Assembly: GCF_000284115.1 (NCBI RefSeq)
Contig: NC_017080.1
Location: forward strand, 990,001 to 1,022,000
Reading direction: 5' to 3'
From: Phycisphaera mikurensis NBRC 102666
GTDB lineage: Bacteria > Planctomycetota > Phycisphaerae > Phycisphaerales > Phycisphaeraceae
Length of the DNA stretch: 32,000 bases
Both the position numbers and the translations under genes were made by a program. Numbering within the stretch: the first letter of the stretch is position 1; the number at the start of each line of letters is the position of its first letter. Shown here in pieces: positions 13,736 through 31,430 of the stretch. The notes beneath the pieces are model-generated. The model had not been told where the DNA came from, did not search any database, and was given only the letters and a program-made list of their open reading frames with translations.

Positions 13736-13767
13736 GACGGCGCGTGGAGTCGCCGTCACCCTGCGTC

Positions 13768-16497
13768 ATGCCCGATGCTCCTTCTTCCAACACGGGTGCC
13801 GCTCCGGTCCGCGCAGCCAGCGGCCGGCGGGTGCTGGTGATCGGCTGGGACGGCGCCGACTGGCGCTTTGCCAGGCCGCTGATGGAGCAGGGCAAAATGC
13901 CCCACCTCAGCCGCCTCGTGCAGCGGGGGGCCTCCGGCAACCTTGCGACGCTCAAGCCGGTGCTCTCGCCGATGCTGTGGAACTCCATCGCCACCGGCAA
14001 GCGGCCGGCCAAGCACGGCGTCCACGGCTTCTGCGAGGTCACGCCCGACGGCGGCGGCGTCCGCCCGGTGCAGAGCGGCAGCCGCACCTGCAAGGCGCTC
14101 TGGAACATCGCGTCGCAGGCGGGGCTGACCAGCAACGTGGTCGGCTGGTACGCCAGCCACCCCGCCGAGCCGGTCCGCGGGGCGGTGGTGACCAACCACT
14201 TCCAGCAGGCGGTCGCGACGCCGGAGGAGCCCTGGCCGGTGCCGCCGGGCAGCGTCCACCCCGCGGAGCTGGAGAAGACGCTTGCGGATCTGCGCGTCCA
14301 CCCGATGGAGATCGACCACGAGACGGTCTCCGCCTTCATCCCCGAGCTCGGGAGCGGCCTGGACAGCGAGTCGCCGCTGCTCAACCCGAAGAAGCACCGC
14401 AAGCTCGGCGAGCTGATGGAGCTGCTGGCGCACACCAGCACCATCCACACCTCGGCAACGTGGCTGATGGAGCACACGGATTGGGACCTGATGGCGGTCT
14501 ACTACGAGGGCATCGACCGCTTCGCCCACGCCTTCATGGGCTTCCACCCGCCCCGGATGGAGCACGTGCCCGAGGAGACGTTCCAGCGGTACCGCCACGT
14601 GATGGAGGCGTGCTACCGCTTCCACGACATGATGCTCGGGGCGACGCTGCGGCTCGTCGGCGAGGACACCACGGTCGTGCTGCTCAGCGACCACGGCTAC
14701 CACTTCGACCACCTCCGGCCCAAAGGTCCGGTGAAGCAGACCGACCCGGTGGCGTGGCACCACCCGCTGGGGCTGCTGGCGATGGCGGGGCCCGGCGTGC
14801 GGCAGGGGCAGACGATCCTCGGAGCGAACCTCCTGGACGTGGCGCCGACGGTGCTGAACCTGCTGGGCCTGCCCTTCGGCCTGGACATGGACGGCAAGCC
14901 GCTGGCCGCGGCGCTGGACCCCGCCGTGTCGCGCGAGCACGTGCTCAGCTGGGAGCTGATCGACGGCGAGGACGGCCGGCCGGACGCGTCGCGGGCGGCG
15001 GAGGCGGTGACCGACCCCGAGGCGGAGAAGGAGGCGCTGCGGCAACTCGCCGAGCTGGGCTACATCGAGCCGCTGGGCGAGGACGCCGAGCAGCGGGTGG
15101 CGCGGGTGCGGCGGGCGAACCGGCTGTGCCTCGTGCAGTCGCTGATGGATGCGGGCGACAATCCCGCCGCGGAGGCGCAGCTGCGGGAGATGCTCCCGGC
15201 GGGCGACCCTCCGGAACTCACGAGAGACCACGCGCCCGTGCTGGAGCTGCTCAACGAGTGCCTGCTCGGCCGGCACGCCCTCGACGAGGTGGAACAGAAC
15301 CTCCAGCGACTCGGGGAGATCCAGGGAGATTCGGGGGCGTCGGCCCGGACGCTCACCCGGGCGCGCGTGGCCGCGGCCCGGGGCGACGCCGAAGCGGCGA
15401 TGGAGATGCTCCGCGGCGAGGACGCGGCGGCGGCGGGAGCGCCCGCCTTCGAGCTGCAGATGGCCCAGCTGATGCTCGCGACCGGCCGCCTCGACGAGGC
15501 CGAGGCGGGCTTCGGCCGGGTGCTGGAGTCCGACCCCGACCAGCCGCTGGCGCTGGACGGCCTCGCCGCCGTCGCGCTGCGGCGGGACGACCCCGCCGCG
15601 GCGCTGGAGCACTGCCTGGCCGTGCTCCAGCGGGTCTACTTCCTCCCGCGGACGCACCTGCGGCTGGGCGTGGCGCTGCGGAAGCTCCACGACCTCGAGA
15701 GCGCCATCCTCGCCACGCGGGTCGCCCGGCACCAGGCGCCCGGCTGGGAGGCGGCTCGCCTCCAGCTGGTCTCGCTGCTCCACGAGGCGGGGCGGCCGGA
15801 GGAGGCCCGGGCCGAGGCCCGGGCGCAGCGGACCGACTTCGACGCCCTGGTCGCCGCCGACCTCGCCGCCCGCCGCGAGGCGGACGCCGCGGCGTCCCGC
15901 GACGGCGTGGTCACCGTGGTGTCAGGCCTGCCCCGCTCGGGCACGAGCCTGATGATGCAGCTGCTCGGGAGCGGCGGCCTCCCGTCCTTCACCGACGGCC
16001 GGCGGAAGCCCGATGCGAGCAACCCCCGCGGGTACCACGAGCACGCCGGCGTGCTCAGGCTCGCCAGCGACCCCGGCGTGCTGCGGGGCGCCGACGGCCA
16101 CGCCGTGAAGGTGGTCCACGCGCTGGTCGAGCACCTCCCGCCGGGTCCGCGCTACCGGGTGATCTGGATGGACCGGCACCTCGACGAGGTGCTGGCCTCG
16201 CAGGCGGCGATGGTCCAGCGGCTGGCCGAGGGCGCGCAGCAGCGGACGCCGCGCGACCGTGAGGCGCTGCGGCGGGTCTTCGCGGGGCAGGCGGAGCGGG
16301 CGCTGGGCCTGCTGCGGGAGCGGCGGGACGTGGACCTGCGGGTGGTGGAGCACGCGGCGCTGCTGGCCGACCCGGTCCCGGTCCTGCGAGAGCTGATCGA
16401 TTGGCTGGAGCTTGACGCCACGCCCGAGCAACTCGCGGAGGTCGTCGATCCCTCGCTGCACCGCCAGCGGCTGGAGACCGCGATCGACGCACGCTGA
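13768..16497 (+). CDS. Tri-domain protein: AlkP-superfamily type I phosphodiesterase/nucleotide pyrophosphatase-like domain, TPR region, and sulfotransferase domain
   Basis: The N-terminus VLVIGWDGADW...LSPMLWNSIATG...VVLLSDHGY matches AlkP/phosphodiesterase motifs. The middle (about 15100-15790) is Ala/Leu-rich helical repeats consistent with TPR. The C-terminus (about 15904-16494) has SGLPRSGTS (a PAPS 5'-phosphosulfate-binding loop) and WMDRHLDEVLAS (an R...S 3'-phosphate motif). The start is ATG 13768 or GTG 13744. Confidence 0.7.
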   Translation: MPDAPSSNTGAAPVRAASGRRVLVIGWDGADWRFARPLMEQGKMPHLSRLVQRGASGNLATLKPVLSPMLWNSIATGKRPAKHGVHGFCEVTPDGGGVRPVQSGSRTCKALWNIASQAGLTSNVVGWYASHPAEPVRGAVVTNHFQQAVATPEEPWPVPPGSVHPAELEKTLADLRVHPMEIDHETVSAFIPELGSGLDSESPLLNPKKHRKLGELMELLAHTSTIHTSATWLMEHTDWDLMAVYYEGIDRFAHAFMGFHPPRMEHVPEETFQRYRHVMEACYRFHDMMLGATLRLVGEDTTVVLLSDHGYHFDHLRPKGPVKQTDPVAWHHPLGLLAMAGPGVRQGQTILGANLLDVAPTVLNLLGLPFGLDMDGKPLAAALDPAVSREHVLSWELIDGEDGRPDASRAAEAVTDPEAEKEALRQLAELGYIEPLGEDAEQRVARVRRANRLCLVQSLMDAGDNPAAEAQLREMLPAGDPPELTRDHAPVLELLNECLLGRHALDEVEQNLQRLGEIQGDSGASARTLTRARVAAARGDAEAAMEMLRGEDAAAAGAPAFELQMAQLMLATGRLDEAEAGFGRVLESDPDQPLALDGLAAVALRRDDPAAALEHCLAVLQRVYFLPRTHLRLGVALRKLHDLESAILATRVARHQAPGWEAARLQLVSLLHEAGRPEEARAEARAQRTDFDALVAADLAARREADAAASRDGVVTVVSGLPRSGTSLMMQLLGSGGLPSFTDGRRKPDASNPRGYHEHAGVLRLASDPGVLRGADGHAVKVVHALVEHLPPGPRYRVIWMDRHLDEVLASQAAMVQRLAEGAQQRTPRDREALRRVFAGQAERALGLLRERRDVDLRVVEHAALLADPVPVLRELIDWLELDATPEQLAEVVDPSLHRQRLETAIDAR

Positions 16498-17324: not shown

Positions 17325-17358
17325 AGCTTTGTTCCGCCCGCCGCCAATTGATCACGTG

Positions 17359-20070
17359 ATGAAACGTTCACGCCCGGAGAGCCCCGACCCGGCCAGCACG
17401 TGGAGCCTCGGGTGCCACGTCCCTCGGGGGGTGGCGGTCTCGCGACGCTCATCGCGCTCCTGCACCCCGCAAGCGGCGTGGCACCCGGCGTGTTCCCGCA
17501 ACGGCTTCTCCGAAAGAGCCTCTGCAATCCTCGGCCGGCTGTGCACGCTTTGCCTCGCCCTCTTCCCGCTCGCCACCTCCGCCGAGCCGGGTTCCACGCC
17601 GACCCGCCCGCTTGCCGAACTCCTCGGGGACGCCCGGCCGCTCGCGGCAACCACGGTGCAGGGGCTGGACCGGGCCGCGCTCCCGCTCCCGCCCGGAGCC
17701 CGCGGCGATCGGCTCACCCTCCGTCTCGCCGCGACCTTCCCGGCGTTCGAGAGCTTCGGCATGGTGATGGACCCGGAGGTCCCGCTGGAGCGTCTGAGCG
17801 AGCCCGAGCGGATGAGCGTCGCGGTGGCGTACGCCGACGGCCGCGTCGACGAGGCGGTGCCGTACGACGAGGCGGCGGGCGTCTTCGGCGTCGTCCGCGG
17901 GACGCGGGACTACGCGGTGGCGATCGATCCCGAAGCCGAGATCCAGAGCGTCGCCGTGATCGACCGCATGTCCACCGCCGCCTTCGCCGTGCTGGACGCG
18001 CAGGTGGCGGACGGGCCGCTGAAGCCGCGCGTCTCGCCGCCGTGGCTCCCGGCCGTGACGCCGGCCGAGCCCGCGTCCGTCACCGTCGGCTTCGACATCC
18101 ACGACGGGCTCCGCTGGGGCCGCATCGCCTCGGGCATGCTGCCGGCGGGCATCGACCTCTCGGGCCAGCCGGTCTTCACCATTGAACTCGAAGACGGCCG
18201 CACCGTGGGCTCCGACGCTTGGACCACGCAGCGCACCTGGACCGCGGGGACGACGCAGAACGTGGTGCTCGCATGGAGCGACGGCGGCGGGGCGGACCTG
18301 GAGGCCACCTTCTCGATCACCCGCGGCGAGGGCGACGGTGCCGAGCTGGCGCTGGCGATCGTCAACCGCGGGAGCGGGAGCCTGCTGGGCGACCTCCGCT
18401 TCCCGGTGCTCACCGGTGTGCGGCTGGGTGCCCCGGGCGAAACCTGGGGCTTCGCCTCGCGGACCGGCGGGGTCATCCACCCCGGCCCCTTCGCCTTCCG
18501 CGACGGCACCGGCGAGCGGCACCCGCTGCAGGTCGACGCCTTCTTCCACCCCGGTGCCGGCGTCACGCTGGCGCTGATGCCCCGCGACAAGAGCGGCCGC
18601 TTCCGCTTCTACGAGGTCGCGCTCGACGCGGACGGCGGCCGCTACGCCCTTGCCCACCCCACCAGCCGGCTGCACCCCGACGGCGTCTGGGACCCCGCCC
18701 CCGTGAAGGTGGCGTTGCTCCCGGGCGACTGGCGTGCGGCGCTGGCCGCCTACACCGACTGGACCGACACCTGGCGTCGCCCCGTCGCCGCGGAGGCGGC
18801 CCCCTGGTTCCGCCGCGGCTTCGACGTCCTCAGCGACAGCCCGGTGACCTGGCGGAAGAGCCGCGGGCTGGACGCCATGCTCGACTTCGGCCGCGTGATC
18901 GACGCGCAGGTCGACGAGATCGCGATCCTCCCCGACGTCTACCACGTCTTCGATTGGGCGAAGACCCCCGAGCACGGCCACTGGGGCGACTACGACAACT
19001 TCCAGAGCGTTGGCAGCCCCGAGCGTTTCGCCGCGTCGCTCGACGCGGTCCGCGAGAAGGGTGTGCGCGCGAGCGTCTACCTCGACGGCTTTCTCAGCTC
19101 CGACGCCGCCCGCCGACCCCGCGAGGAGGACCGGCTGGCCTGGGCGATCCGAACGCCCGACGGCGAGCCGAAGCAGTCTTTCGGCGACGCCAAGGCGATG
19201 AACCTGAACGAGCCGGGCTGGCGCCGCCACCTCGTAGAAACCTACACCCGGGCGTACCGGTCGCTCCGGCCCGACGCGATGTACGTCGACGAGATCGGCC
19301 GCTCGCTCGACAAGTACACGCACCACCCCGGCGACGGCAGCCGCGTGCGGATGTCCGCCGGCGAGGCCGACCTGCTCCGCGAGCTGCGGGAGGCGCTGCC
19401 CACCGACCTGCCGCTGTGGTCCGAGTTCACGCCCGCGGACGCCGCCTCGCAGTTCATCAACGGGAGCTTCAGCTACAACGCGCTGGTCGGGCACTTCGGC
19501 AACGACGCGTTCTGGAGCAGCGAGCCCGGAGAGGTGCCGAGCTACCAGACGCTCGCCCCGCACTTCATCAACCTCAACCGCTTCGCCTTCCCGGCGTTCA
19601 AGAGCTTCCACCTCGTCTCCTACCCGCACACCCGCAACGGCAACTGGACGCTCTACAAGGTGCCCTTCTTCAACGGCGACGGCTATTACCAGCCGGTGCG
19701 CGAATCGGAGTACATGGACGAGGCCTACCGGTCGTTCATCACCAAGGCCCTCGGCATCCTGCAGCGCAACGCCGACGTCTACGCCTCCGACGACGCGACG
19801 CCGCTGGTCCCGACCCGCATCCCCGGCGTCTACGCCAACCGCTTCGCCAGCGACGACGGGAAGACCGTGATCTACAACCTCTACAACGCGAACCACCACA
19901 CCGTCCGCGGCCCGGTGCTGGACGTCGCCGAGGCGGCCGGCTCCGTCGAGAACCTCTGGGACGACGCCACGGTCGACGAAGCCCCGGCCGCCGGCGGCGG
20001 CCGCACGCTCTCGCTGGCCCTCGGCCCCCGCGCCCTGGGCTGCCTGCGGATCAGCCCGCCGGCGGACTGA
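17359..20070 (+). CDS. Large secreted protein of unknown function (possible glycoside-hydrolase-like catalytic region)
   Basis: A long ORF with balanced composition. The hydrophobic segment LGRLCTLCLALFPLATSAEP looks like a signal peptide. The C-terminal half (VYHVFDWAKTPEHGHWGDYD, VYLDGF, MYVDEIG, LWSEF) is loosely reminiscent of TIM-barrel glycosidases. The start is uncertain: TTG 17329, ATG 17359 or GTG 17431. No canonical start lies just upstream of the hydrophobic segment. Confidence 0.6.
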   Translation: MKRSRPESPDPASTWSLGCHVPRGVAVSRRSSRSCTPQAAWHPACSRNGFSERASAILGRLCTLCLALFPLATSAEPGSTPTRPLAELLGDARPLAATTVQGLDRAALPLPPGARGDRLTLRLAATFPAFESFGMVMDPEVPLERLSEPERMSVAVAYADGRVDEAVPYDEAAGVFGVVRGTRDYAVAIDPEAEIQSVAVIDRMSTAAFAVLDAQVADGPLKPRVSPPWLPAVTPAEPASVTVGFDIHDGLRWGRIASGMLPAGIDLSGQPVFTIELEDGRTVGSDAWTTQRTWTAGTTQNVVLAWSDGGGADLEATFSITRGEGDGAELALAIVNRGSGSLLGDLRFPVLTGVRLGAPGETWGFASRTGGVIHPGPFAFRDGTGERHPLQVDAFFHPGAGVTLALMPRDKSGRFRFYEVALDADGGRYALAHPTSRLHPDGVWDPAPVKVALLPGDWRAALAAYTDWTDTWRRPVAAEAAPWFRRGFDVLSDSPVTWRKSRGLDAMLDFGRVIDAQVDEIAILPDVYHVFDWAKTPEHGHWGDYDNFQSVGSPERFAASLDAVREKGVRASVYLDGFLSSDAARRPREEDRLAWAIRTPDGEPKQSFGDAKAMNLNEPGWRRHLVETYTRAYRSLRPDAMYVDEIGRSLDKYTHHPGDGSRVRMSAGEADLLRELREALPTDLPLWSEFTPADAASQFINGSFSYNALVGHFGNDAFWSSEPGEVPSYQTLAPHFINLNRFAFPAFKSFHLVSYPHTRNGNWTLYKVPFFNGDGYYQPVRESEYMDEAYRSFITKALGILQRNADVYASDDATPLVPTRIPGVYANRFASDDGKTVIYNLYNANHHTVRGPVLDVAEAAGSVENLWDDATVDEAPAAGGGRTLSLALGPRALGCLRISPPAD
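17409..17487. repeat. Nested palindromic element (GTGCCAC type), copy 2
   Basis: cgggtgccacgtccctcggggggtggcgg (17409-17437) and tgcaccccgcaagcggcgtggcacccg (17461-17487) have the same arm sequences as copy 1. It lies in the 5' end or leader of the next gene. Confidence 0.8.
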
Positions 20071-20545: not shown

Positions 20546-21862
20546 TCAGGCCCCGCCCGCCGCCCGCGCTTCCCGGGCCTCGCGGTCTTCTTTCTCGCGG
20601 AGGTGCGCCTGCCGGCGGGCCTGGGCCTCGGCGAGGATGCGGTGGATCGGCTCGGGGCGGGTGCCCTCGCGGACGTGCCGCTTCACGCTGGCGAGGGCGT
20701 CGAGCATCATCTGCGGGACGTCGTCCTTCGCCCGCGTGGTGCGCTCGCCCTCCGGCCGCCACCAGTCGTGGGTCTCGGTCCACGTCCAGACGAAGTCATC
20801 CGCCTGCCGGGCGTGGTTGTAGAGGCTCGCCTCGGTGAAGGCGGGCCGGTCTTCCGGCTCCACGAAGCAGGGGAGCATCGTGTTGAAGAAGGGCTCGCCG
20901 GCGAAGTAGTCCGAGTCGGTGAAGAGGTCGGTGTAGAAGCCGTGTGCCCGCCGCCGCCGCTCGACGTACAGCGCCCGGTGCTCTTCATCGAGCAGCGTGT
21001 GCGCTTCGAATTGCGCCCGGCGGAAGCGGTGGAGGGTCTCGGGCGCGACGTTGTAGTAGCCGTTCTCGTTGCCGTCGACGATCTGCGTCCCCGGCGCGAT
21101 GCCGTCGAGCATGCCGTCGTAGAGCGCGGGCATCAGCGAGTCGGGATCGCCCACGATGACGTCGGCGCCGAGGCCGAAGATCATGACCAGCCGCATGCCG
21201 GGCAGCTCCGACTGCAGCGCCTCGATGAAGGTGCGGTAACGCTCCCGCACCTTCTGCTTCACCTGCTCCCGCGACTTGCCCGGGTACCGCTCGCTCGCGT
21301 AGGTGAAGGGGTCGCTGACGTAGGGCTCGGTGTCGAAGAAGAAGCCGACCATGCCCGCCGCCGCCGCCGCGCGGCTGAGCAGGCGGAGGTTGTGGTCGAT
21401 CGTCTCCCAGCGGGCGTCGTCGAAGTAGCCGGCCGGGTCGGGGACCTCCGCGTCGATCACGTCCGCCTGCAGCGGGATCATGCTGAAGGGGATGCCGGCG
21501 GCATCGAGGTCCAGGCGCTCCATGTCGCTCATCCCCACGTTCGCCTCCGTCCAGCGGCGATCGTCGAAGACGATCGGAAATTCATTGGCGCCGCGGTGGA
21601 AGCCGTCGCCGGTGGGGGTGATGGCGATGCCGTCGAAGTCGCGGGCCCGGAAGCGATCCGGGTGGTCCGCCACGTAGCCGGCGTGTGGTGTGCTCCAGCC
21701 GATCTCGAAGAAGAGCAGGTCGCGGGGCGCCAGCTCCGGATCCGCCACCGACTCGGGCTTGGGATCATCGGGCTTGCTTCCGGACACCTCGGCGATCGCG
21801 AGCGGAGCCGTGCAGGCCGCGGCGAGGGCGAGCGCGGCGAGAAGAGGAGAAGAAGGGGTCAT
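20546..21862 (-). CDS. Secreted protein, unrecognised family, paralog A (putative glycosidase-like)
   Basis: It is 438 aa with the signal peptide MTPSSPLLAALALAAACTAPLAIAE. It shares GW, (D/P)FDG, FFFDTEPY, DGNENGYY, HGFYTDL and DWWRPEGERTTRA with ORFs 22020..23333 and 23320..24639, and more distantly with 24737..26623. Confidence 0.8.
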   Translation of the reverse strand: MTPSSPLLAALALAAACTAPLAIAEVSGSKPDDPKPESVADPELAPRDLLFFEIGWSTPHAGYVADHPDRFRARDFDGIAITPTGDGFHRGANEFPIVFDDRRWTEANVGMSDMERLDLDAAGIPFSMIPLQADVIDAEVPDPAGYFDDARWETIDHNLRLLSRAAAAAGMVGFFFDTEPYVSDPFTYASERYPGKSREQVKQKVRERYRTFIEALQSELPGMRLVMIFGLGADVIVGDPDSLMPALYDGMLDGIAPGTQIVDGNENGYYNVAPETLHRFRRAQFEAHTLLDEEHRALYVERRRRAHGFYTDLFTDSDYFAGEPFFNTMLPCFVEPEDRPAFTEASLYNHARQADDFVWTWTETHDWWRPEGERTTRAKDDVPQMMLDALASVKRHVREGTRPEPIHRILAEAQARRQAHLREKEDREAREARAAGGA

Positions 21863-21959
21863 GGGACGGTTCCAGGGTGAGAAGACAGCGAACGAACGAA
21901 ACGGCCTCAGGTACGACGCCCGGTCATTGGCATGCGGTCGCGTGGCGGGCGTCGCGAGC

Positions 21960-21983
21960 GGGCGGGCGGGCGGGCGGGCGGGC
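21960..21983. repeat. (GGGC)6 tetranucleotide microsatellite / G-quadruplex motif
   Basis: Six perfect GGGC units span 21960-21983, followed by aggcgggtgg. This gives seven G3 runs with 1-nt loops. It lies in the 157-bp spacer between the paralog B stop (22020) and the paralog A start (21862). Confidence 0.9.
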
Positions 21984-22019
21984 AGGCGGGTGGTCGGGAG
22001 CCGGCTCGGAGCCGCGGGG

Positions 22020-23333
22020 TCAGTCGGAGCCGGGCCCGGCGGCTTCGGCGGCTTCGGCGGCCGCGACGAAGGCCGCCTGCCGCCGCACCGCCTCTTCCAG
22101 CACCTCCGGAGTCGGGTCGGGCCGGGTGCCCGCCCGCACGTGCTGCCGCACCTCGCGGATCGCCGACTCGAACCACGCGGGCGGCGTGAGCTTGGCGCGG
22201 GTGGTCCGCTCGCCCTCGGGCCGCCACCAGTCGTAGTCCTCGGTAAGGAACCACACGAGGTCCTCCGCCATGCGGGCGTGGTTGAACAGGTGGGCGACGG
22301 CGAAGGCGGGCCGGTCTTCGGGGTCGATGAAGCTCGCGAGGCGGCGCGTGAAGAAGAAGTCTTCGTAGAGCTCCGGCGCGACCACGAGGTCGGTGTAGAA
22401 CCCGTGGCCGGTGCCCCGATGGCGGATGTACGTTTCCCGGTTCTCCGGGGCGAGCCGCGCTTGTGCCTCCCGTTGCGCCCGGCGGAAGCGGTCGAGCGTG
22501 GCGGGCAGGGCGTGGTAGAAGCCGTTCTCGTTGCCGTCGACGATCCGCGTGCTCGGGCCGATCGCGTCCAGCCACCCGTCGTAGAAGGACGCGACGAGAT
22601 CGGTCTCGTCGGAGTCCAGATGCGTGGCGCAGAGGCCGAACATCGTCACCAGCTCGAACTCCGCCGTGCCCATCCCCTCCTGCAGGGCCGCGATCGCCTG
22701 CGCCCCACGCGCCCGCACTTTCGCTCGGACCTGGGCCAGGCTCCGACCCGGGAACGCCTCCCGGGTGTAGGCCCAGGGATCCGAGCCGTATGCCTCCTCG
22801 TTGAGGAAGAAGCCGCCGAAGCCCGCCTCGACCGCGGCCGAGGCGTAGAGCCGCAGGTTCGCCGTGATCGTCCCCCACCGCCGGTCGTCGAACCAGCCGA
22901 CCGGATCCACCGGTCCGCGGTCCTGCGTGCTGGCCTGCAGCGCGAGGAGGTGATGACCGGTCGCCCCGCCCGCCGCTCCAATCCGGCGGGCGGCTTCGAG
23001 CCCGACCGCGGCGGCGTCCCAGGGCCGGGCGTCGAAGAGCAGCGGGGTGCCGCTGGCGCCGCGGTGCCGATCGCCGGCGACCGGCTTGAACACCACGCCG
23101 TCGAAGGGCCGCGCCGCAAAGCGTTGCGGGTGGTCCACGAGCATCGCCAGCGGCGGGAGGTTCCAGCCGTACTCGAGGAAGCGGATGTCGCGGGGTGCGA
23201 GCTCCGGCTGTTCCGGCTGCTTCGCGTTGGACGCACAGGCCAGGAGCAGCAGCGTGGCGAGCAGGAAGCGGGCGCACCCGCGGTTTTCAAGCCGCGGTTG
23301 CGAGCCGCGGGGGCAGACTTCAGCCCTGTTCAT
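22020..23333 (-). CDS. Secreted/lipoprotein, unrecognised family, paralog B
   Basis: It is 437 aa with a lipobox-like FLLATLLLLAC/ASN. It has the same motif set (YGW, PFDG, FFLNEEAY, DGNENGFY, HGFYTDL, DWWRPEGERTTRA). Its ATG at 23333 overlaps the paralog C stop by 14 nt. Confidence 0.8.
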   Translation of the reverse strand: MNRAEVCPRGSQPRLENRGCARFLLATLLLLACASNAKQPEQPELAPRDIRFLEYGWNLPPLAMLVDHPQRFAARPFDGVVFKPVAGDRHRGASGTPLLFDARPWDAAAVGLEAARRIGAAGGATGHHLLALQASTQDRGPVDPVGWFDDRRWGTITANLRLYASAAVEAGFGGFFLNEEAYGSDPWAYTREAFPGRSLAQVRAKVRARGAQAIAALQEGMGTAEFELVTMFGLCATHLDSDETDLVASFYDGWLDAIGPSTRIVDGNENGFYHALPATLDRFRRAQREAQARLAPENRETYIRHRGTGHGFYTDLVVAPELYEDFFFTRRLASFIDPEDRPAFAVAHLFNHARMAEDLVWFLTEDYDWWRPEGERTTRAKLTPPAWFESAIREVRQHVRAGTRPDPTPEVLEEAVRRQAAFVAAAEAAEAAGPGSD

Positions 23334-24639
23334 GGGCGCGCTCCTCCCGGGCCTCGCGGTCTTCTTTCTCGCGGAGGTGCACCTGCCGGCGGGCCTGGGC
23401 CTCGGCGAGGATCCGGTGGATCGGCTCGGGCCGGGTGCCCTCGCGGACGTGCCGCTTCACCGTCTTCATCGCCTCCACGAAGAAGGCGGGGACGTCGCTT
23501 TCGGCGCGGGTGGTCCGCTCGCCCTCGGGCCGCCACCAGTCGTGGGCCTCGGTCCAGGTCCAGACGAAGTCCTCGGCCTGGCGGGCGTTGTTGTAGAGGT
23601 GGTGGACGGTGAAAGCCGGCATGTCGTCGGGCTCCACGAAGCAGGCGAGCATGTTCTCGAAGAATGGCTCTTTGCTGAACCACGCCGGGTCGGTCATGAG
23701 GTCGGTGTAGAAGCCGTGCGCCCGCCGGCGACGCTCGACGTACAGGTCGCGGTGCTCCTCGGCGAGCAGCGTGTGCCCGTCGAACTGGGCCTGCCGGAAG
23801 CGGTCCAGCGTCGGGGCGGTCGCGTTGTAGTAGCCGTTCTCGTTGCCGTCGACGATCTGCACGCCCGGGCCGATCGCGTCGAGCATCCCGTCGTAGAAGC
23901 TCGGCATGAGGTCGTCGGGATCGTCCACCACCACGTTCGCGCACAGCCCGAAGATCATCACCAGCCGCATCCGCGGGACCTCGCTCTGCAGCGCGGCCAG
24001 GAAGGTGGCGCCACGCTCGCGGACCTTCGCCTTGGTCTCCTCGCGTGAGCGTCCCGGGTACAGCGCCTCGGACCACGTCCAGGGGTCGGCCGTGTACGAC
24101 TCGGTGTCGAAGAAGAAGCCCACGACGCCGGCCTCGCGAGCGGCGCGGCTGTAGAGCCGGAGATTGCGATCGATCGTCTCCCACGCCGCGTCGTCGAACC
24201 ACGCCCCGGGGTCGGTCTCGTCCAGGCGGCTGAAGTCGCTGGCCTGGAGGATCAGCATGCTGAAGGGCACGCCCGCCGCCTCGAGGTCGACCCGCTTCAT
24301 GTCCTCCATCGCGACGTGCTCGTCCGCCCACGGGCGGTCGTCGAACACGACCGGCACCTGGCTGGCGCCCTGGTGGAAGCCGTCGTCGGTGGGTCCGAAG
24401 ACCACGCCGTCGAAGGGTCGCGACGCGAAGCGCTCCGGGTGGTCCGCGAGGTACCCGGCGGTGGGGATGCCCCAGCCGAATTCGAGGAAACGCAGGTCAC
24501 GCGGTGCGTGCTCCGGCTCCTCCGGTGACGATGGCCGCGGGTCGTCGGGTTTGGAGCCCGCGCCCTCGGCGGACGCGGCGGTTGCCTGCAGCGTGCAGAG
24601 CAGGAGAAGAGGGAGCAGAAGCTTGCGGAGAGGATTCAT
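23320..24639 (-). CDS. Secreted protein, unrecognised family, paralog C
   Basis: The start was trimmed to the ATG at 24639 (MNPLRKLLLPLLLLCTLQATAASA/EG signal peptide). It has the motifs FGW, PFDG, FFFDTESY, DGNENGYY, HGFYTDL and DWWRPEGERTTRA. Its C-terminal tail is nearly identical to that of paralog A. Confidence 0.8.
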   Translation of the reverse strand: MNPLRKLLLPLLLLCTLQATAASAEGAGSKPDDPRPSSPEEPEHAPRDLRFLEFGWGIPTAGYLADHPERFASRPFDGVVFGPTDDGFHQGASQVPVVFDDRPWADEHVAMEDMKRVDLEAAGVPFSMLILQASDFSRLDETDPGAWFDDAAWETIDRNLRLYSRAAREAGVVGFFFDTESYTADPWTWSEALYPGRSREETKAKVRERGATFLAALQSEVPRMRLVMIFGLCANVVVDDPDDLMPSFYDGMLDAIGPGVQIVDGNENGYYNATAPTLDRFRQAQFDGHTLLAEEHRDLYVERRRRAHGFYTDLMTDPAWFSKEPFFENMLACFVEPDDMPAFTVHHLYNNARQAEDFVWTWTEAHDWWRPEGERTTRAESDVPAFFVEAMKTVKRHVREGTRPEPIHRILAEAQARRQVHLREKEDREAREERAHEQG

Positions 24640-24674
24640 GCGGAGCTGGAGGATGCGTCGGCCGGTCGATGGGT

Positions 24675-24703
24675 TCGACACACGACCCACGTGATTCTAT
24701 CAT
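24675..24703. promoter_or_regulatory. Putative back-to-back divergent sigma70-type promoters
   Basis: On the plus strand, TCGACA (24675-24680), a 17-nt spacer and TATCAT (24698-24703) lie 34 nt upstream of the ATG at 24737. On the minus strand, an extended -10 TGaTAGAAT (complement of 24694-24702) serves the gene starting at 24639. By eye (not computed) this is the most AT-rich patch of the window. Confidence 0.4.
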
Positions 24704-24736
24704 GCAGAACTTATCGTTCTCGGTGAAGGCCCACTC

Positions 24737-26623
24737 ATGCGCAATCCTCGGCTCCTCTGCCTCACGCTCGCCGTTGCCGTCGCTCCCGTCCCGTCCGCGT
24801 GGGCGGAGCCGGAGAAGAAGCTGATCCAGCTCGGCTGGGACGGCGGGACGCCGGGCAAGATGCTCGCGAACCTCGAGCGGATGAAGGCGGGGCCGTTCGA
24901 CGGCTACGTCTTCAAGCTCCCGGAGGTCGACGCCGACACCGAGGCCCGCCCGCTCCCGCTGCAGAACCTGTTCACCACCGAGCCGCACCCCGCGGCGCTC
25001 TTCGAGCCGCACCTGGAGGACATGCGGACGCTGAAGGAGCGGGGCCTCGGGAACATGACGCACAACATGGTCAAGATCTGGTGCACCGGCCGCGACGGCT
25101 GGGACTGGTTCAACGACGACCACTGGGCCGCCGCCGAGGAGAACTGGCGGAATCTGGTGAAGCTCGCCAGCGTCGGCGACGCCGACATCATGTTCGACCC
25201 CGAGAGCTACTACACGAAGATCGAGCCGAACTACTTCTGGGTCTTCAACCACCAGGACAACCCGCGCGCCGACGAGAAGACGATCGGCGAGTACGAGGAG
25301 GTCGTGCGGCAGCGGGGCCGCCAGTTCGTGCGGGCGCTGGCCGAGGTCGATCCGGACATCGACATCCTCTCGATGTACGGTCTGAACAAGACCACCGACG
25401 CCGTCCTCAACGCGGACTCGCCCGCCGAAGCCGACGCCGCCCTGGAAGCGCAGCTCTACTACAACCTGCTGCCCGCCTTCGTCGCCGGCGTGCTGGAGGA
25501 AGCCCACGACGGCTTCACCTTTCACGACGGCAACGAGATGGCGTACTACTACACCTCGCCCGAAGAGTTCGAACACGCTCGTGAGAGGATGAAGGGTCCG
25601 GTCCGCCGCGCCCTGCCGCCGGATGCGCAGAAGCACTTCGACGACCACTACCGGGCGGCGCAGGCCATCTACGCCAGCGACCTCTTCCCGTACGACGCCG
25701 ACGATGGCGCGTACCGAGCGTTCTTCCGGACGGTGATGCCACGCGACCGGCAGGCCGAGCTGCTGGCGCACAACGTGTACCACGCGCTGGCCACCGCGGA
25801 CGAGTACGCCTGGTACTACAACGACGGCGCCATCGACAACTGGACCGGCGACGTCCCCGCGGGGATGCACGAGGCGATCCGCCGCGCCCGCGGCCTCCTG
25901 GAGGCGGGCGAACCCTTCCCACCGGGGATGGTGGCCGAGGTGGAAGCGGCGAAGGAGGCGTACCAGCGGCAGGTCACCGGCGACCTGCACATCGCCACCG
26001 CGGACTTGACGAGCGTGTCCACGCCGCCGCGGATCGATGGGGACGTCGACGACGCCGCGTGGAAGGAGACGCAGCGGCACGGGCCGATGCACGCGCTGAG
26101 CAGCAACCCCACCGACCAACCCGGCGAGGATGCTTTCGTCCGCGTCGCCGCCGACGCGGAGAACCTCTACGTGCTCGTGGAGGCGATGGACGACCGCACC
26201 GACCACCTCGACCTCCGCGGCGACGGTCGCGACGGCGACGTTTGGGCCGGCGACGACGTGGAGGTGGCCGTGAGCGATCCCGACAACGCCGATCGCTTCT
26301 TCCTCTTCATGGTCAACCCGGCCGGCACGATCTACGACGCGGAGCTGCGGGTCGACGCCGAAGGCGAGCTGAGCTTCGACACCGGCGGCTACGACCCCGA
26401 TTGGCAGCGCGCGGTCGAGGTCCACGACGACCGCTGGGTCGTCGAGATCGCGATCCCCTGGTCCGCCGTCGGCGGCCGCCCCCGCAACGACCAGCCGTTG
26501 CGGATGAACGTCGCCCGCTCCTTCGGCGATCGGCCCGGCCCCGGCTTCGTCTCCTGGAGCCAGACCATCGACAGCTTCCTCACGCCGGCCCACTTCGCCG
26601 AGCTGCGGCCGGCGGGCAACTGA
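24737..26623 (+). CDS. Secreted protein, divergent paralog D of the unrecognised family, fused to a C-terminal CBM9/DOMON-like module
   Basis: The signal peptide is MRNPRLLCLTLAVAVAPVPSAWA/EP. The N-terminal ~420 aa align motif-by-motif with paralogs A-C (LGW, PFDG, MFDPESY, DGNEMAYY, a D..W tail). The C-terminus (from about 25997) has PPRIDGDVDDAAWKE, FFLFMVNPAGTIYDAE and WVVEIAIPWSAV, typical of CBM9-like modules. Confidence 0.8.
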   Translation: MRNPRLLCLTLAVAVAPVPSAWAEPEKKLIQLGWDGGTPGKMLANLERMKAGPFDGYVFKLPEVDADTEARPLPLQNLFTTEPHPAALFEPHLEDMRTLKERGLGNMTHNMVKIWCTGRDGWDWFNDDHWAAAEENWRNLVKLASVGDADIMFDPESYYTKIEPNYFWVFNHQDNPRADEKTIGEYEEVVRQRGRQFVRALAEVDPDIDILSMYGLNKTTDAVLNADSPAEADAALEAQLYYNLLPAFVAGVLEEAHDGFTFHDGNEMAYYYTSPEEFEHARERMKGPVRRALPPDAQKHFDDHYRAAQAIYASDLFPYDADDGAYRAFFRTVMPRDRQAELLAHNVYHALATADEYAWYYNDGAIDNWTGDVPAGMHEAIRRARGLLEAGEPFPPGMVAEVEAAKEAYQRQVTGDLHIATADLTSVSTPPRIDGDVDDAAWKETQRHGPMHALSSNPTDQPGEDAFVRVAADAENLYVLVEAMDDRTDHLDLRGDGRDGDVWAGDDVEVAVSDPDNADRFFLFMVNPAGTIYDAELRVDAEGELSFDTGGYDPDWQRAVEVHDDRWVVEIAIPWSAVGGRPRNDQPLRMNVARSFGDRPGPGFVSWSQTIDSFLTPAHFAELRPAGN

Positions 26624-27222: not shown

Positions 27223-28071
27223 TCACTTGATGAAGGCGTCGAAGTCGCCGGACCAGAAGTTGTCGACCTGAGGATCCTCCGTTTCGGCCATGATCGAGTC
27301 GTCGGAGATGTCGAAGTTGTAGACGCTCGCGTGACCGTCGACGAACAGCGCGTTCTGCTGCTCCTCCGGGTGCCAGTTGGCCCAGAAGAGCCGGCTGTTC
27401 AGGCCCTGGTTCGTGCTGTCGGTGTAGGCGGCGCCCTCCGGGTAGGCCGCCGCGGAGCCCGGGGCGGTGGAGCGGTAGTCCATGATGCTCATCATCTCCG
27501 TCGCCGAGAGGATGGAGTCTTCGCGGACGTACGGCGCGTACCGGGGCGTGGCGGGATTGCTGCCGCTGGGGATGAACGGTCCGCTGCTCGTGTTGTAGCC
27601 GAGGCGCCAGTTCCGGCCGTAGCTGAGGTACTGCTGCTTGCCGGACCACCCGAGGTATCGCCCATCGAATTCTTCATCGAGGGGGCACTGGTAAACGGTG
27701 CCCGGCACGCTGGTGATCTTCCAGCGGTCCGAACCCGACGAGACGTCCGTTGCCATGCCCGGCACCGACTCGTTGAAGTGACGGCTGTCGGACCACATCC
27801 AGCCCGGAGTGCTCCTTTCCTCATTGAAGTAGACGGAAGGAACGAGAGTGGCCTTGTTCTCGGCGGCGTACGCCGCGTCGGCAATGCCGAACTGCTTCAG
27901 GTTCGAGAGGCACTTCATGCCGCGCGCTGCGTCGCGGGCGGCGCCAAGCGCGGGCAGCAAGATGCCGATGAGCAGGGCGATGATCGAGATCACCACCAGG
28001 AGCTCGATCAGCGTGAAGCCGGTGCGGCACGGAGCGGCACAAGCCTGGCGATGGAAGGCGGGGTTCGGCAT
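27223..28071 (-). CDS. Prepilin-type N-terminal cleavage/methylation domain protein (type II secretion pseudopilin-like, DUF1559/H-X9-DG type)
   Basis: [25 protein letters not shown] is the canonical prepilin methylation motif and helix. The C-terminal [18 protein letters not shown] matches the H-Xn-DG tail, with 10 rather than 9 intervening residues by my count. The start was trimmed to the ATG at 28071. Confidence 0.85.
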
Positions 28072-28109
28072 GGCGGGTTTCTTTGGAAGTGAGTGAGGCA
28101 GGCGCACCC

Positions 28110-28229: not shown

Positions 28230-29456
28230 TCATCGGCCGCTGCGAACCCGCTGCCAGAGGTCCGCCATCGCGATCATTGGGTTGTGGCCGAGGTAGTCCG
28301 GGCACGGCTGGTTGGCCGCGTCCTCGGCGTACGGCTTCCGCGCCACCGACTCCGGCGCGTCGCCATCGGGGTGGTAGAACTCGAAGATCGTGCCGGTGCG
28401 GTCGAAGTGGGCCGCGGAGTCGTCTAGCGCCCTCTCGAGGATCCGCGCCGCGGCGTCGTGACGTCCATACCGCACGCACCCGCTGCACGCCCAGAAGGTC
28501 ATGCTGTTCCAGGCGGGGCCCCGCCACATCCGCATCTCGTAGCCGATCGACTTTCTCGCCACGGTGCGGCAAGGATGCACGCCGAAGAAGGCGTCCGGGT
28601 CGAGCAGCCAGCCGTCGATGAAGCGGTCCGCCTGCTCCGCGGAGGCGATGCCCAGCACCAGCGGCCACATCCCCTCCAGCGCCATCGGGGGGTTCTCCTC
28701 CTCCGTGCGGAAGCCGTCCACGAACAGGCCGAGGCCGTCGTGCCAGAGCTCGCCACGGATCCGCTCGGCGAGCGTGTCCGCCCGCCGCCGGGCCTCGGCG
28801 GCCCGCTCGCCGTCGCCCCAGCGGGCCACGGCGTCCATCAGCAGCCAGGCGTGGCTGGAGGCGTCCACGAAGGGAACCAGCCGGTCGGTGGGGCCGTCGA
28901 GGAAGCGGACTCCGTCGTCCACGCCCGACTCGAAGCTGCCCTCGAGCGTGAGGTCCGCGTAGCCGTAGAGGCCCTCCTCGGTCCTCCGATTCGCGTCGAA
29001 CCAGCCCAGCTGCTTCACCGCGTGCGGTAGATAGCGCCTCCGGATCGCTGGATCGACACCGGCCTCGACCAGACGCTCCACCAGCAGCGCCCACACCGGC
29101 GGGTGGCTGGTGCGGGGGTTGTGCAGGTCGGGCTTGCCGTCGAGCAGCCGGAAGATCGGCGGCATGCGGCCGTCGTCCTGCTGCAGGGCGAGCGTGTTCT
29201 CCAGCTGCCGCTGCGCGTGCCCAGGCGAGCCGAGCACGGTGTCGTGGCACTGGTGGACGATGTCCCAGTGCCCGAAGGCGGGGCCGTAGCAGTAGCCCGG
29301 CCCGATCTCCTCCCAGGGGTGCGGGAAGATGCCGTGCGTGTCCTCGCGGACGGAGCGGCCGTGGAGATCGGCGACGTAGGCGAGCATCGGAGCCCACGCG
29401 GGGCGGTCGGCGGAGGCGGTCTCGGCGGCGGCGGCAAGGCCGGGGATCGTGGGCAT
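28230..29456 (-). CDS. (alpha/alpha)6-barrel glycoside hydrolase, GH63/trehalase (MGH1)-like
   Basis: GPAFGHWDIVHQ, HPPVWALL, SGVDDGVRF, EGMWPLVLG and MWRGPAWNSMTFW resemble GH63/GH37-type six-hairpin glycosidases. The start was trimmed to the ATG at 29456 (MPTIPGL...). Confidence 0.6.
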   Translation of the reverse strand: MPTIPGLAAAAETASADRPAWAPMLAYVADLHGRSVREDTHGIFPHPWEEIGPGYCYGPAFGHWDIVHQCHDTVLGSPGHAQRQLENTLALQQDDGRMPPIFRLLDGKPDLHNPRTSHPPVWALLVERLVEAGVDPAIRRRYLPHAVKQLGWFDANRRTEEGLYGYADLTLEGSFESGVDDGVRFLDGPTDRLVPFVDASSHAWLLMDAVARWGDGERAAEARRRADTLAERIRGELWHDGLGLFVDGFRTEEENPPMALEGMWPLVLGIASAEQADRFIDGWLLDPDAFFGVHPCRTVARKSIGYEMRMWRGPAWNSMTFWACSGCVRYGRHDAAARILERALDDSAAHFDRTGTIFEFYHPDGDAPESVARKPYAEDAANQPCPDYLGHNPMIAMADLWQRVRSGR

Positions 29457-29556
29457 GGGGCAGCTCGGGAGCGGAACGGATTCCGTCCAACGATACACCC
29501 AGTTCCGGGTGTACGTGAAAAGTGCATACCCCTCCGCAAGCAACGCCGCCGCAAGG

Positions 29557-29602
29557 TCGCGGACCGTCAGCCTTCGGCGGCTCCGGGGCCCGCGGTCCGC
29601 GG
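29557..29602. repeat. REP-like 46-bp palindromic element
   Basis: tcgcggaccg is at 29557-29566 and cggtccgcgg at 29593-29602 (36-bp spacing). The right arm overlaps the last codons of the minus-strand AraC gene (stop at 29567). Confidence 0.75.
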
Positions 29603-30472
29603 AGGGGCAGAAGGCTCGCCGCGCCGGAAGGCGGAGGGCGAGCCGCCGGTCTCCGCCTTGAACTGCCGGGAGAAGTGGAAGGCGTCGGTGTAGCCCAGCG
29701 CCTCGGCGACTTCGCCGACGTTCATGCCCGTCTCGCGGAGGAGGTGGCGGGCCCGGCGGACCCGCTCCACGGTGACGAAGCGGCGGGGGGTGACGCCGGT
29801 CGCGGCCCGGAAGATCGCCCGGAAGCGGTCGCCGCCGTGGCCGGCCTCGGCGGCCATCGCCGCGACCGACCAGGCGGCGCCGGGCTCCTCGCGGATGCGG
29901 CTGCGCAGCGCGTCGACCATCCGGCGGTGGGCGGGAGACACCCCCGCGTCACCCGCCTCCGCGTTCTGCGCGGCCGCCGCGGCGGCATAGTCCGCGAGCA
30001 GGCCGGCGAGGAGCAGGTCGGTCGTGTCTGCGGCGGGCGGCTCTCGCTTCGCGCGTTCCACCACCCGCCGGGCCACGGCGTCGGCGAAGGCGAGGTCGTC
30101 CCAATCGAGCACCTCCGGCGGGAGCGCGGCGTCGGGCACGCGCCGCCCGCGGCGCGTCGCCTCGAAGTGCAGGTACGTCACGCCCAGGCGATCGTCGGGG
30201 TCCTGCTCGGCTTCGTAGCGCCGGCCCGGCCGCATCCACACGCAAACGCCGGGCCGCAGGTCGATCACGCCGTCGGTGAGCGTCATCCGGCCGCGCCCGG
30301 CCCAAACCAGCCACAGGTCGAAGTCGCGGAGGTCGCGCCACCAGCACGCGTCCAGGCGCCAGCCCGGCTCGCAGCGGACGCGGCCGCACACGCCCAGCGT
30401 CACGCGCGTGCCCCGGTCGGTCCAGCCGCACGCACCACTCCGGGGTCCTTTCTCCACAACGGAAACATACAT
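29567..30472 (-). CDS. AraC/XylS-family transcriptional regulator (cupin-type sensor plus HTH)
   Basis: The C-terminus has SVAAMAAEAGHGGDRFRAIFRAATGVTPRRFVTVERVRRARHLLRETGMNVGEVAEALGYTDAFHFSRQFK. The start was trimmed to the ATG at 30472 (MYVSVVEKG...). The upstream part of track ORF 29567..31015 is antisense to the PhyH gene. Confidence 0.8.
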   Translation of the reverse strand: MYVSVVEKGPRSGACGWTDRGTRVTLGVCGRVRCEPGWRLDACWWRDLRDFDLWLVWAGRGRMTLTDGVIDLRPGVCVWMRPGRRYEAEQDPDDRLGVTYLHFEATRRGRRVPDAALPPEVLDWDDLAFADAVARRVVERAKREPPAADTTDLLLAGLLADYAAAAAAQNAEAGDAGVSPAHRRMVDALRSRIREEPGAAWSVAAMAAEAGHGGDRFRAIFRAATGVTPRRFVTVERVRRARHLLRETGMNVGEVAEALGYTDAFHFSRQFKAETGGSPSAFRRGEPSAPPRTAGPGAAEG

Positions 30473-30518
30473 GTTTCTGCCCGCCGCGTCCATGGCGTCG
30501 CGGCCCGGCTCGACGATC

Positions 30519-31430
30519 ATGGAGGCCACTCCAGAGCAAGTGGGACCCATCGCCATGACCAACACCGACACCGACACCGAAACCGAAAAACCGTTCGCCC
30601 CGCCCGTCGAAAACCCCGTCGAGGATCCGCCCGAGGGCCTGTACGAGCCCGCGGGCCGGGTGGACCTCCTGCCCGGGCCCGACGCTGTGAACGACGAGGC
30701 GGCCGTCTTCTTCGCCGAACGCGGGTACCTCGCCGTCGCCGGCGTGCTCACCCCCGCGGAGGTCGCCGCCTCGCTCGCCTCCCTGGAGGACCTGGTCGAG
30801 GGGCGGATCGAGGGATTCAACGGCGTGCAGAACGAAGCCCAAGCCGGAGACGACCCGGAAACGCCCGCCATCGACCGCGTGCGGAAGCTGTGGTTCACCG
30901 GCGACGAGTGCCAACGCTGCGGCATGCCGGTGGACCACCCGCTCGTGAAGCGGATCGTCGCCAAGCTGATGCCAGGCCGTGAGCCGGCGATCTTCCAGAC
31001 GATGGCGCTGCTCAAACCGCCCGGCCGGGGCCGCGAGAAGCCCTGGCACCAGGACCACGCCTACTTCAAGGTCCGCCTGGAGGACCGGATCGTCGGCGTG
31101 TGGATCGCGCTCGACCACGCGTTGGTCGAGAACGGCTGCATGCAGCTCATCGACGGCGGCCACCTCGGCGGCCCGCTCGTCCACTTCAGCCGGCGGGACT
31201 GGCAGCTGTGCGACGCCGACGTGATGAAGCAGGCCTCGTTGGCCGCGGTGCTCGCGCCCGGCGACGCGCTCTTCTTCGACAGCCTGCTGCCCCACGGCAC
31301 CCCGCCCAACCGCAGCGGCCGCCGCCGCCGGGCGATGCAGTTCCACTACGCCCCCGCCGACACGGTGAAGATCGCGATGGAGGAGCACGACGGGATCTTC
31401 GGCTCCGCCGGGAAGAGCGTGTACTGCTGA
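30519..31430 (+). CDS. Phytanoyl-CoA dioxygenase (PhyH)-family Fe(II)/2-oxoglutarate oxygenase
   Basis: It has FFAERGYLAV, PWHQDHAYF (the H-x-D iron ligands), a distal LLPHGTPPN His, and RRRAMQFHY. The start is ambiguous: ATG 30471, 30492, 30519 or 30555. I chose 30519 to avoid overlapping the divergent AraC start. Confidence 0.75.
   Translation: MEATPEQVGPIAMTNTDTDTETEKPFAPPVENPVEDPPEGLYEPAGRVDLLPGPDAVNDEAAVFFAERGYLAVAGVLTPAEVAASLASLEDLVEGRIEGFNGVQNEAQAGDDPETPAIDRVRKLWFTGDECQRCGMPVDHPLVKRIVAKLMPGREPAIFQTMALLKPPGRGREKPWHQDHAYFKVRLEDRIVGVWIALDHALVENGCMQLIDGGHLGGPLVHFSRRDWQLCDADVMKQASLAAVLAPGDALFFDSLLPHGTPPNRSGRRRRAMQFHYAPADTVKIAMEEHDGIFGSAGKSVYC

Follow-up and report, generated by a model that had tools for sequence, protein, structure and literature searches.

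Secreted glycosidases that combine a (beta/alpha)8 or TIM barrel with a carbohydrate-binding module (CBM) are already a familiar kind of enzyme, and for that reason no concept is changed by the four paralogous genes, here called A to D, that we have analysed in a 32,000-nt stretch of the genome of Phycisphaera mikurensis NBRC 102666, a cultured marine bacterium (contig NC_017080.1, positions 990,001 to 1,022,000; the whole stretch is referred to as the window, and coordinates are counted from its first nucleotide). The four proteins probably belong to a new glycoside-hydrolase-like family with a predicted function. As judged by sequence comparison, the family is not demonstrably a member of any named family in the databases searched, which were Pfam of 2025, NCBIfam of June 2026 and PDB chains up to April 2026.

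The closest described systems each resemble this family in part. Glycoside hydrolases (GHs) of clan GH-A, such as the GH5 enzymes 5d9m, 6q1i and 3ndy, have in common with it the (beta/alpha)8 barrel, a Glu after strand 4, aromatic residues at strand 8, secretion and fusion to CBMs. Enzymes of the GH84/GH20/GH18 type (5mi5, 2cbj, 8bal, 5a6a, 7ou8) also have a barrel whose strand 4 ends in an Asp/Glu pair. Xylose-isomerase-like barrels (4xsl, 4pfh, 8xiv) are of similar size and have carboxylates on several strands. In Xyn10A of Thermotoga maritima, the module CBM9-2 (1i82) is appended to a catalytic domain, as it is in paralog D to a putative one. Finally, GH_New1 and GH_New2, two of four new GH families reported together, are also TIM-barrel families from marine glycan loci (bioRxiv 10.64898/2026.05.19.726164). 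One GH_New2 member, STSP1_01769, is by its locus-tag prefix presumably of Phycisphaerae type.

Four paralogs with a predicted barrel

The four genes and the two domains of D are as follows; models were made with AlphaFold2 (AF2), and GC3 is the G+C fraction at third codon positions.

20546-21862, minus strand: paralog A, 438 aa (BAM03032 / WP_014436252 / I0ICP4), GC3 0.93
22020-23333, minus strand: paralog B, 437 aa (BAM03033 / WP_014436253 / I0ICP5)
23320-24639, minus strand: paralog C, 439 aa (BAM03034 / WP_014436254 / I0ICP6), modelled with AF2
24737-26623, plus strand: paralog D, 628 aa (BAM03035 / WP_014436255 / I0ICP7), with signal peptide, barrel and CBM9
24806-25981, plus strand: barrel domain of D, about aa 24-415, AF2 model
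25997-26611, plus strand: CBM9 beta-sandwich of D, aa 421-625 in the model (Pfam match at aa 433-593, nt 26033-26515)

An earlier note, made from the sequence alone, had read four open reading frames (ORFs) here, and all four are found at the coordinates given there. Many long ORFs in this window of 72% GC are spurious. In GC content by codon position, A-D show the pattern of real genes (GC3 0.91-0.94), which overlapping alternative ORFs lack, and we therefore regard them as real coding genes. Identity is 67% between A and C, 47-51% between B and these two, and 24-29% between D and A-C. The note's claim that all four share one domain is supported by a BLASTP alignment of A with D over the whole domain of about 420 aa (E=4e-15) and by matches of all four to the family hidden Markov model (HMM) at E=1e-117 to 1e-144 (A at E=1.9e-124; D scores best). 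No fifth copy was found when the family HMM was run over every frame of the window; two further ORFs of 437 aa each, at 11263-12576 and 28230-29543, were considered as extra paralogs and rejected, as they are GH27-like and GH63-like. All four proteins begin with a hydrophobic, signal-like segment, in keeping with the signal-peptide or lipobox proteins that the note had described, and a plausible lipobox (LLAC, read by eye) is present in B only. In A, the signal-like N-terminus is followed by the barrel and then by a charged C-terminal helix.

The shared core of about 380 aa is predicted to be a (beta/alpha)8 barrel. The AF2 models, built from the family alignment, are confident both for C (pLDDT 91.8, pTM 0.88) and for D (pLDDT 89.7, pTM 0.89), and in each DSSP assigns eight beta-strands alternating with helices, to which D adds a C-terminal beta-sandwich. 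The strands of C lie at aa 50-55, 78-82, 128-132, 174-178, 225-228, 261-266, 304-311 and 358-363. As a prediction, then, the barrel suggested earlier is upheld by two models. Foldseek searches of the PDB with the two models gave 207-226 matches at E<=1e-3, the barrel matches listed being TIM-barrel proteins, and some 44 of the top 50 matches for C are TIM-barrel glycoside hydrolases (GH5, GH84, GH20, GH26-GH5). The modelling and fold search that the note had proposed as a check thus yield a predicted barrel whose neighbours are generic TIM barrels only.

The C-terminal module of D is a genuine CBM9. The Pfam model CBM9_1 matches aa 433-593 at E=3.5e-11, with 43.8 bits against a gathering cut-off of 23.4, and the modelled fold matches 1i82, 7nwo and 4jpq in Foldseek at E=1e-8 to 4e-10 with target-normalised TM-scores (TMt) of 0.68-0.72 (for 1i82, E=3.8e-10 and TMt 0.68). 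What had been called a CBM9-like fusion is therefore confirmed from both sides. The module is 24% identical to CBM9-2 of Xyn10A, and differs from it in its partner, which in D is not a GH10 xylanase.

For the barrel itself, we found no named family. Paralogs A-C have no Pfam match at E<=1, CBM9 is the sole significant Pfam match of D, and NCBIfam holds nothing meaningful for the shared domain. Pfam scans of 95 family members, run individually at E<=1, never matched the barrel, and neither single proteins nor profiles of 4, 25 and 114 sequences found a related chain among PDB sequences; weak matches to WWE-domain and LidA chains were discarded as chance. Profile-profile comparison by hhalign gave probabilities of 0.24% or less, hence no relation, between the family and the DUF6259 and GH27-like proteins of the window (the latter at 0.13%), and equally for the DUF4874/DUF4832 and DUF4838 proteins encoded near relatives elsewhere (contexts L004 and L005, below). 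The earlier failure to place the shared domain in Pfam thus holds, and extends to NCBIfam and PDB sequences.

It is unlikely, in our estimate, that the domain already sits in a recent CAZy or InterPro/CATH family, which would make the locus an ordinary multigene cluster of carbohydrate-active enzymes (CAZymes). In UniRef, B is entered as 'Glycoside hydrolase' and D as a carbohydrate-binding-domain protein; the former name, probably an automated superfamily-level call, implies that some automated resource recognises the superfamily, so that of the note's 'unrecognised' family the missing Pfam and NCBIfam models stand and the absence of any name does not. New GH families also appear every year, four of them in bioRxiv 10.64898/2026.05.19.726164 alone. 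Against prior classification, the names seen at NCBI and JGI are 'hypothetical protein' throughout, save for D ('sugar-binding protein' at NCBI), Pfam and NCBIfam have no model, and no PDB chain is close in sequence or fold. Nor is any paper found to cite the accessions of A-D, and searching the literature by accession, for CBM9 together with a new family, and by phylum turned up no description of the family; one paper on fucoidan (PMC11685898) does not describe it either. By their published descriptions, the two new TIM-barrel families do not fit: GH_New1 belongs to clan GH-A, is GH140-like and keeps the catalytic residues of the clan, and GH_New2 belongs to clan GH-D, is GH27/GH36-like and has a 281-aa N-terminal beta-sandwich (bioRxiv 10.64898/2026.05.19.726164), whereas the barrel of A-D begins directly after the signal peptide.

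Wider family and candidate catalytic residues

The family is neither tiny nor confined to this locus. Although a word-indexed search returned only 24 relatives and a second one with a 95-sequence profile 12, an exhaustive HMM search returned 3,555 representatives of 50%-identity clusters at E<=1e-3 (1,668 at E<=1e-30), a lower bound for the size of the family, with named members in Planctomycetota, Hydrogenedentota, Armatimonadota, Omnitrophota and Gemmatimonadota. A signal-like N-terminal segment is present in 149 of the 155 proteins with a complete N-terminus. More than 100 aa lie beyond the barrel in 43/171 proteins, and about a quarter of members are fused to glycan-binding modules, making the fusion seen in D a family-wide trait. 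The accessory domains detected in the 95 scanned members are CBM9 (21/95), GH2_N and GH2_N2 (7), Big_7 (5) and BetaGal_ABD2 (4), with PA14, NPCBM, CBM_4_9 and ricin besides; every recurrent one is of a glycan-binding type. Two tandem barrels occur in 5/171 proteins (P0025, P0026, P0044, P0045 and P0054), P0026 also bearing RTX calcium-binding repeats, and among the 95 members scanned there is also one methyltransferase fusion.

Conservation was counted over 177 domain instances, with strands placed from the secondary structure of the C model; residue numbers are those of C unless another paralog is named. The conserved positions cluster at the C-terminal ends of strands: G55-W56 at the end of strand 1, W147/D150/W153 in the loop after strand 3 (W147 94%, D150 93%), D178-x-E180-x-Y182 after strand 4 (99%, 99% and 98%), D264-G-N-E267-x-x-Y270 at the end of strand 6 (D264 93%, E267 and Y270 94%), [Y/W/F]311-x-D313 at the end of strand 7 (position 311 aromatic in 174/177, D313 92%), and W360-x-Y-x-E364 followed by W368-W369 at the end of strand 8 (W360 95%, E364 85%, W368 92%, W369 96%). 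Other strongly conserved residues are G78 and G251 (100%), F248 and G210 (98%), R209 (97%), and D77 and R207 (92%). E180 is preceded mostly by Pro, Thr or Ala, also by Val, and no His or Cys is conserved across the 177 instances. The motifs listed in the earlier note are present in all four paralogs and correspond to the most conserved columns of the family. Its two Glu residues, said to lie roughly 85-100 residues apart, are 87 apart in C, sit at the C-terminal ends of strands 4 and 6, and are kept in the wider family (E180 99%, E267 94%), so that the loss which the note had named as a refutation is not seen; the candidate catalytic residues of A are D177, E179, Y181, D263, E266, Y269, D312 and E363. 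In C, the two codons are:

24100-24102, minus strand: E180
23839-23841, minus strand: E267

In a TIM barrel, the catalytic face is formed by the C-terminal ends of the strands; a mixture of carboxylates and aromatic residues is typical of carbohydrate-active sites. The carboxylates found at these ends (D178/E180, D264/E267, D313 and E364) are 85-99% conserved. On balance, the likelier reading of the predicted structure is that the A-D barrel is a secreted glycoside hydrolase acting on an extracellular polysaccharide or oligosaccharide. The conserved residues would line the catalytic face, with E180 on strand 4 as general acid/base and E267 on strand 6 as its partner, a pairing chosen because both are kept in all four paralogs and the strand-7 Asp is shifted in D; D313 would be the alternative partner of E180. 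D178, D264, D313 and E364 are equally available as catalytic carboxylates, and the retaining mechanism proposed in the note is conjecture. Conserved tryptophans and tyrosines would stack on sugar rings, and in D the CBM9 would tether the enzyme to glycan chains.

The paralogs differ at positions that may bear on activity. Of the 56 positions that at least 75% of the family conserve, D departs from the consensus at 12, compared with 22 in A, 21 in B and 20 in C. With the fewest deviations and the highest family HMM score, it is D that represents the canonical form, and A-C make up a divergent subclade, contrary to the note, which had D as the divergent copy. A-C lack D57, N127 and D146, polar residues that are 76-90% conserved elsewhere, and share a subclade-specific insertion (RPEGERTTRA) and the charged C-terminal helix. 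Since they are without a CBM and have these three residues replaced, A-C would act on a different or shorter substrate. B alone among the four carries D178N (nt 22800-22802) and Y270F (nt 22518-22520), Asn at position 178 occurring in just 2/177 instances, and would have altered or reduced activity; it retains E180, D266, E269, D315 and E365. In D, the strand-4 motif is D154-x-E156-x-Y158 and the strand-6 motif D264-G-N-E267-x-x-Y270, the strand-7 Asp is displaced by one residue (Y312-A-S-D315), and Asp replaces E364. To the extent that they differ at conserved polar positions, the paralogs fit the diversification of specificity after local expansion that the note had proposed. The pairing of a short with a CBM9-fused form recurs in context L004, where a 64%-identical short form lies 2.5 kb from a CBM9-fused member, and this too fits functional diversification.

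This arrangement may match no established TIM-barrel GH clan. GH5 enzymes give the best Foldseek E-values for the C model (2.4e-6 to 7e-6), with TM-scores of 0.35-0.47, root-mean-square deviations (rmsd) of 8-10 A and 8-12% identity. Clan GH-A is recognised by N-E on strand 4 and Glu on strand 7; the family has D-x-E-x-Y and, in 92%, a strand-7 Asp, and neither the Cellulase nor any other clan-A Pfam model matched among the 95 members. Only in B does the local sequence, N-E-E, resemble the N-E motif of that clan. In clan GH-D (GH27/31/36), strands 4 and 6 carry the catalytic Asp; acidic residues lie on these strands in the family too, but hhalign with the GH27-like protein of the window gave 0.13%, and no GH27, GH31 or GH36 structure is among the top 50 Foldseek matches.

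A serious rival, though one to which we would give only a small chance, is a substrate-assisted glycosidase in the style of GH18, GH56, GH85, GH20 or GH84, in which D178 would orient the acetamido group of an N-acetylhexosamine glycan, E180 would be the acid/base, and the part of E267 would be to bind substrate, not to act as nucleophile. No acidic residues are more conserved than D178 and E180 (99% each), which stand in a D-x-E after strand 4 that resembles the D-x-E of GH18 and GH56, and the D178N of B gives N-x-E, the motif of GH85. GH84 and GH20 structures are among the best Foldseek matches of C (5mi5, 2cbj, 8bal, 5a6a) and of D (7ou8, 5ac4), and the aromatic-x-Asp on strand 7 and the W...E on strand 8 recall GH20. 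However, the TM-scores to enzymes of this type (0.31-0.41) are no better than those to GH5, those enzymes have adjacent D-E or D-D where the family has D-x-E, and the Pfam models of GH18, GH20, GH84 and GH85 are unmatched in the 95 members at E<=1. Moreover, no N-acetylhexosamine-related genes recur in the contexts sampled, and E267, at 94%, is as strongly conserved as a catalytic residue would be.

Less probable still is a non-hydrolytic carbohydrate-active barrel, that is, a metal-dependent isomerase or epimerase, a lyase or an esterase, with the carboxylates of strands 4, 6, 7 and 8 binding metal. D-tagatose/D-psicose 3-epimerases, YcjR and a putative sugar-phosphate isomerase recur in the Foldseek results with the highest TMt (0.50-0.57), the carboxylates do lie on four different strands, and one member is encoded in an operon for the biosynthesis and modification of exopolysaccharide (EPS). 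Xylose-isomerase-like enzymes have an E-D-H-E metal site, whereas the family has no conserved His and no match to Pfam AP_endonuc_2, and we have rejected membership in that group. Signal peptides and CBM fusions, furthermore, typify extracellular depolymerases rather than cytoplasmic sugar isomerases and epimerases.

Genomic settings and possible role

Secreted hydrolysis of glycans, the reading that we prefer, is also consistent with the UniRef name of B and with where the relatives of A-D are encoded. Eight of the 11 distinct contexts sampled, the window included, are glycan-related. With D alone as query, one Tepidisphaerales metagenome-assembled genome (MAG) was all that a scan found; in such a MAG (contexts L001 and L002), two CBM9-fused members lie with a sugar ABC transporter, two GH63-like genes and a sulfatase, one of the two members standing inside the sugar ABC-transporter operon of L001. 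Other neighbours are DUF4874/DUF4832 with GH35 (L004), DUF4832 with a GH63-like gene (L016), GH29, DUF4838, Pectate_lyase22 and a GH42-like gene (L005), and a beta-helix+CBM4_9 protein, BNR_2 and a sulfatase (L015). In L018 (1248-15318), a row of secreted, ricin-fused enzymes includes a PL9-like beta-helix, a GH5 cellulase and an RHGA-like protein, and in one protein of the row a ricin-fused barrel of our family takes the slot of the catalytic domain. A different setting is that of L017, where a member with a faint GH2_N-like C-terminal module (10001-11743) lies on the same strand and tightly spaced within an EPS biosynthesis and export cluster (Poly_export, ABC exporter, GT4, GT-D, GT2 and several methyltransferases), which suggests that some members process a polymer made by the cell itself.

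Members of the D type, fused to CBM9, are associated with an MGH1-like GH63 gene in three genomes (L001/L002 at 1736-3640 and 10001-11884, L016 at 13587-14747, and the window at 28230-29543), and the GH63-like enzyme is a possible pathway partner of these members. The context would allow either of two roles: the enzymes may serve to forage on algal and other glycans, or to process the exopolysaccharide that the cell makes itself. The latter is credible given the PEP-CTERM proteins, sulfotransferase and epimerase encoded in the window and the EPS operon of L017.

Several observations nevertheless weigh against an active glycosidase. There is no sequence-level link to any GH family in Pfam, NCBIfam, the PDB profiles or hhalign (below 1%). 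The structural likeness is generic, with TM-scores of 0.31-0.57 and rmsd of 7-12 A, and the Foldseek matches include non-hydrolytic sugar epimerases and old yellow enzyme. E267 is replaced in about 6% of members, P0011 and P0012 being without it in the alignment. Three of the 11 contexts (L008, L011 and L013) are housekeeping or unrelated, and the neighbourhood in the window is mixed, at least as much like EPS and cell-surface biosynthesis as catabolic. Neighbours that the earlier note had taken to be almost all glycoside hydrolases are GH-like by Pfam only in the melibiase, the MGH1-like protein and a weakly GH88-like protein, among about 16 genes. A non-catalytic, glycan-binding or structural pseudo-enzyme barrel at the cell surface is very improbable, for although B is substituted at two near-invariant positions and many neighbours are surface- or EPS-related (PEP-CTERM, DUF1559), the dedicated and often fused binding modules would be redundant for a lectin, and the near-invariance of several strand-end carboxylates across distant phyla argues for chemistry rather than binding alone.

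A broader proposal is more tentative and, taken jointly, falls somewhat short of an even chance: A-D may be founding-type members of a new GH family of at least 3,500 clusters, concentrated in poorly studied phyla (Planctomycetota/Phycisphaerae and the other four named above), with a catalytic apparatus (strand-4 D-x-E-x-Y plus strand-6 D-G-N-E) that matches no established TIM-barrel GH clan, and they may cleave a linkage for which there is no known enzyme, for example in red-algal or in sulfated or methylated exopolysaccharides. Should the barrel prove to be an active glycosidase, CAZy would gain a new family of thousands of members, in phyla whose carbohydrate metabolism has mostly been deduced from families already known, and present CAZyme counts would be too low for Planctomycetota, Hydrogenedentota, Armatimonadota and Omnitrophota. 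The P. mikurensis locus offers a handy entry, as it combines a cultured host with the canonical D, the A/C subclade, the D178N variant B and a single CBM9 copy, and the fact that GH63-like enzymes and sugar ABC transporters recur beside family members points to a testable pathway.

Gene arrangement and neighbouring genes

The remaining features of the window are listed below, the genes as assigned by GC3 and Pfam.

7-2763: weak GH88-like protein (GC3 and Pfam)
3026-3823: SDR (GC3 and Pfam)
4046-4825 and 12943-13671, both plus strand: two small PEP-CTERM proteins with C-terminal sorting motifs
4822-5928: Rsm22-like methyltransferase (GC3 and Pfam)
6318-9176, minus strand: nitrite/sulfite reductase homolog, 952 aa
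10323-11204, plus strand: creatininase (Pfam)
11263-12576, minus strand: GH27-like melibiase (Pfam)
13744-16497, plus strand: phosphodiesterase-TPR-sulfotransferase fusion, 917 aa
16515-17324: epimerase (GC3 and Pfam)
17329-20070, plus strand: DUF6259 protein, 913 aa (match at aa 461-659, E=1.3e-9), convergent with paralog A
24675-24703, plus strand: sigma-70-like promoter match in the C/D spacer, TCGACA-17-TATCAT, 10/12 positions, 34 nt upstream of the ATG of D
27223-28107, minus strand: DUF1559 / N-terminal-methylation-motif prepilin-like protein, between D and the GH63-like gene
28230-29543, minus strand: MGH1-like GH63 hydrolase (Pfam MGH1-like_GH, E=8.3e-28)
29567-31015, minus strand: AraC-family regulator (Pfam HTH_18, HTH_AraC and AraC_binding), downstream of the GH63-like gene

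Since B overlaps the end of C by 14 nt, we think that C, B and A are probably co-transcribed; A and B are separated by 157 nt, and the divergent C/D spacer is 97 nt long. For C, a GTG start at 24690 is possible, but the ATG at 24639 agrees with the database protein and leaves room for the promoter-like site, which is a consensus match only, one such site being found in the spacer against 0.2 expected from shuffles. The AraC-family protein is a possible local regulator.

Nucleotide identity among A-C is only 59-73% (55-62% at third positions), so their duplications are old, and recent gene conversion among the three was set aside: only the last 28 codons of A and C reach 85%, against 73% overall. 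An identical 24-nt, terminator-like string (GGGCCTCGCGGTCTTCTTTCTCGC) occurs at 20575-20598 and at 23349-23372 on the plus strand, one copy in the 3' coding end of A and one in that of C, each in antisense. The similarity of these ends could reflect local gene conversion or a strong constraint on the charged C-terminal helix.

In the nitrite/sulfite reductase homolog, NIR_SIR domains cover only aa 363-630, with long unannotated regions on both sides. The adjacent ORF at 9221-10408 (plus strand, 395 aa, with good coding statistics, GC3 0.97) is without a Pfam match and shares 86 nt with the beginning of the creatininase ORF, and the start site of one of the two is probably wrong. An unusual fusion is encoded at 13744-16497, joining a type I phosphodiesterase / alkaline-phosphatase-superfamily domain (E=4e-25) and TPR repeats to a C-terminal sulfotransferase, and is perhaps tied to the making or remodelling of a sulfated glycan.

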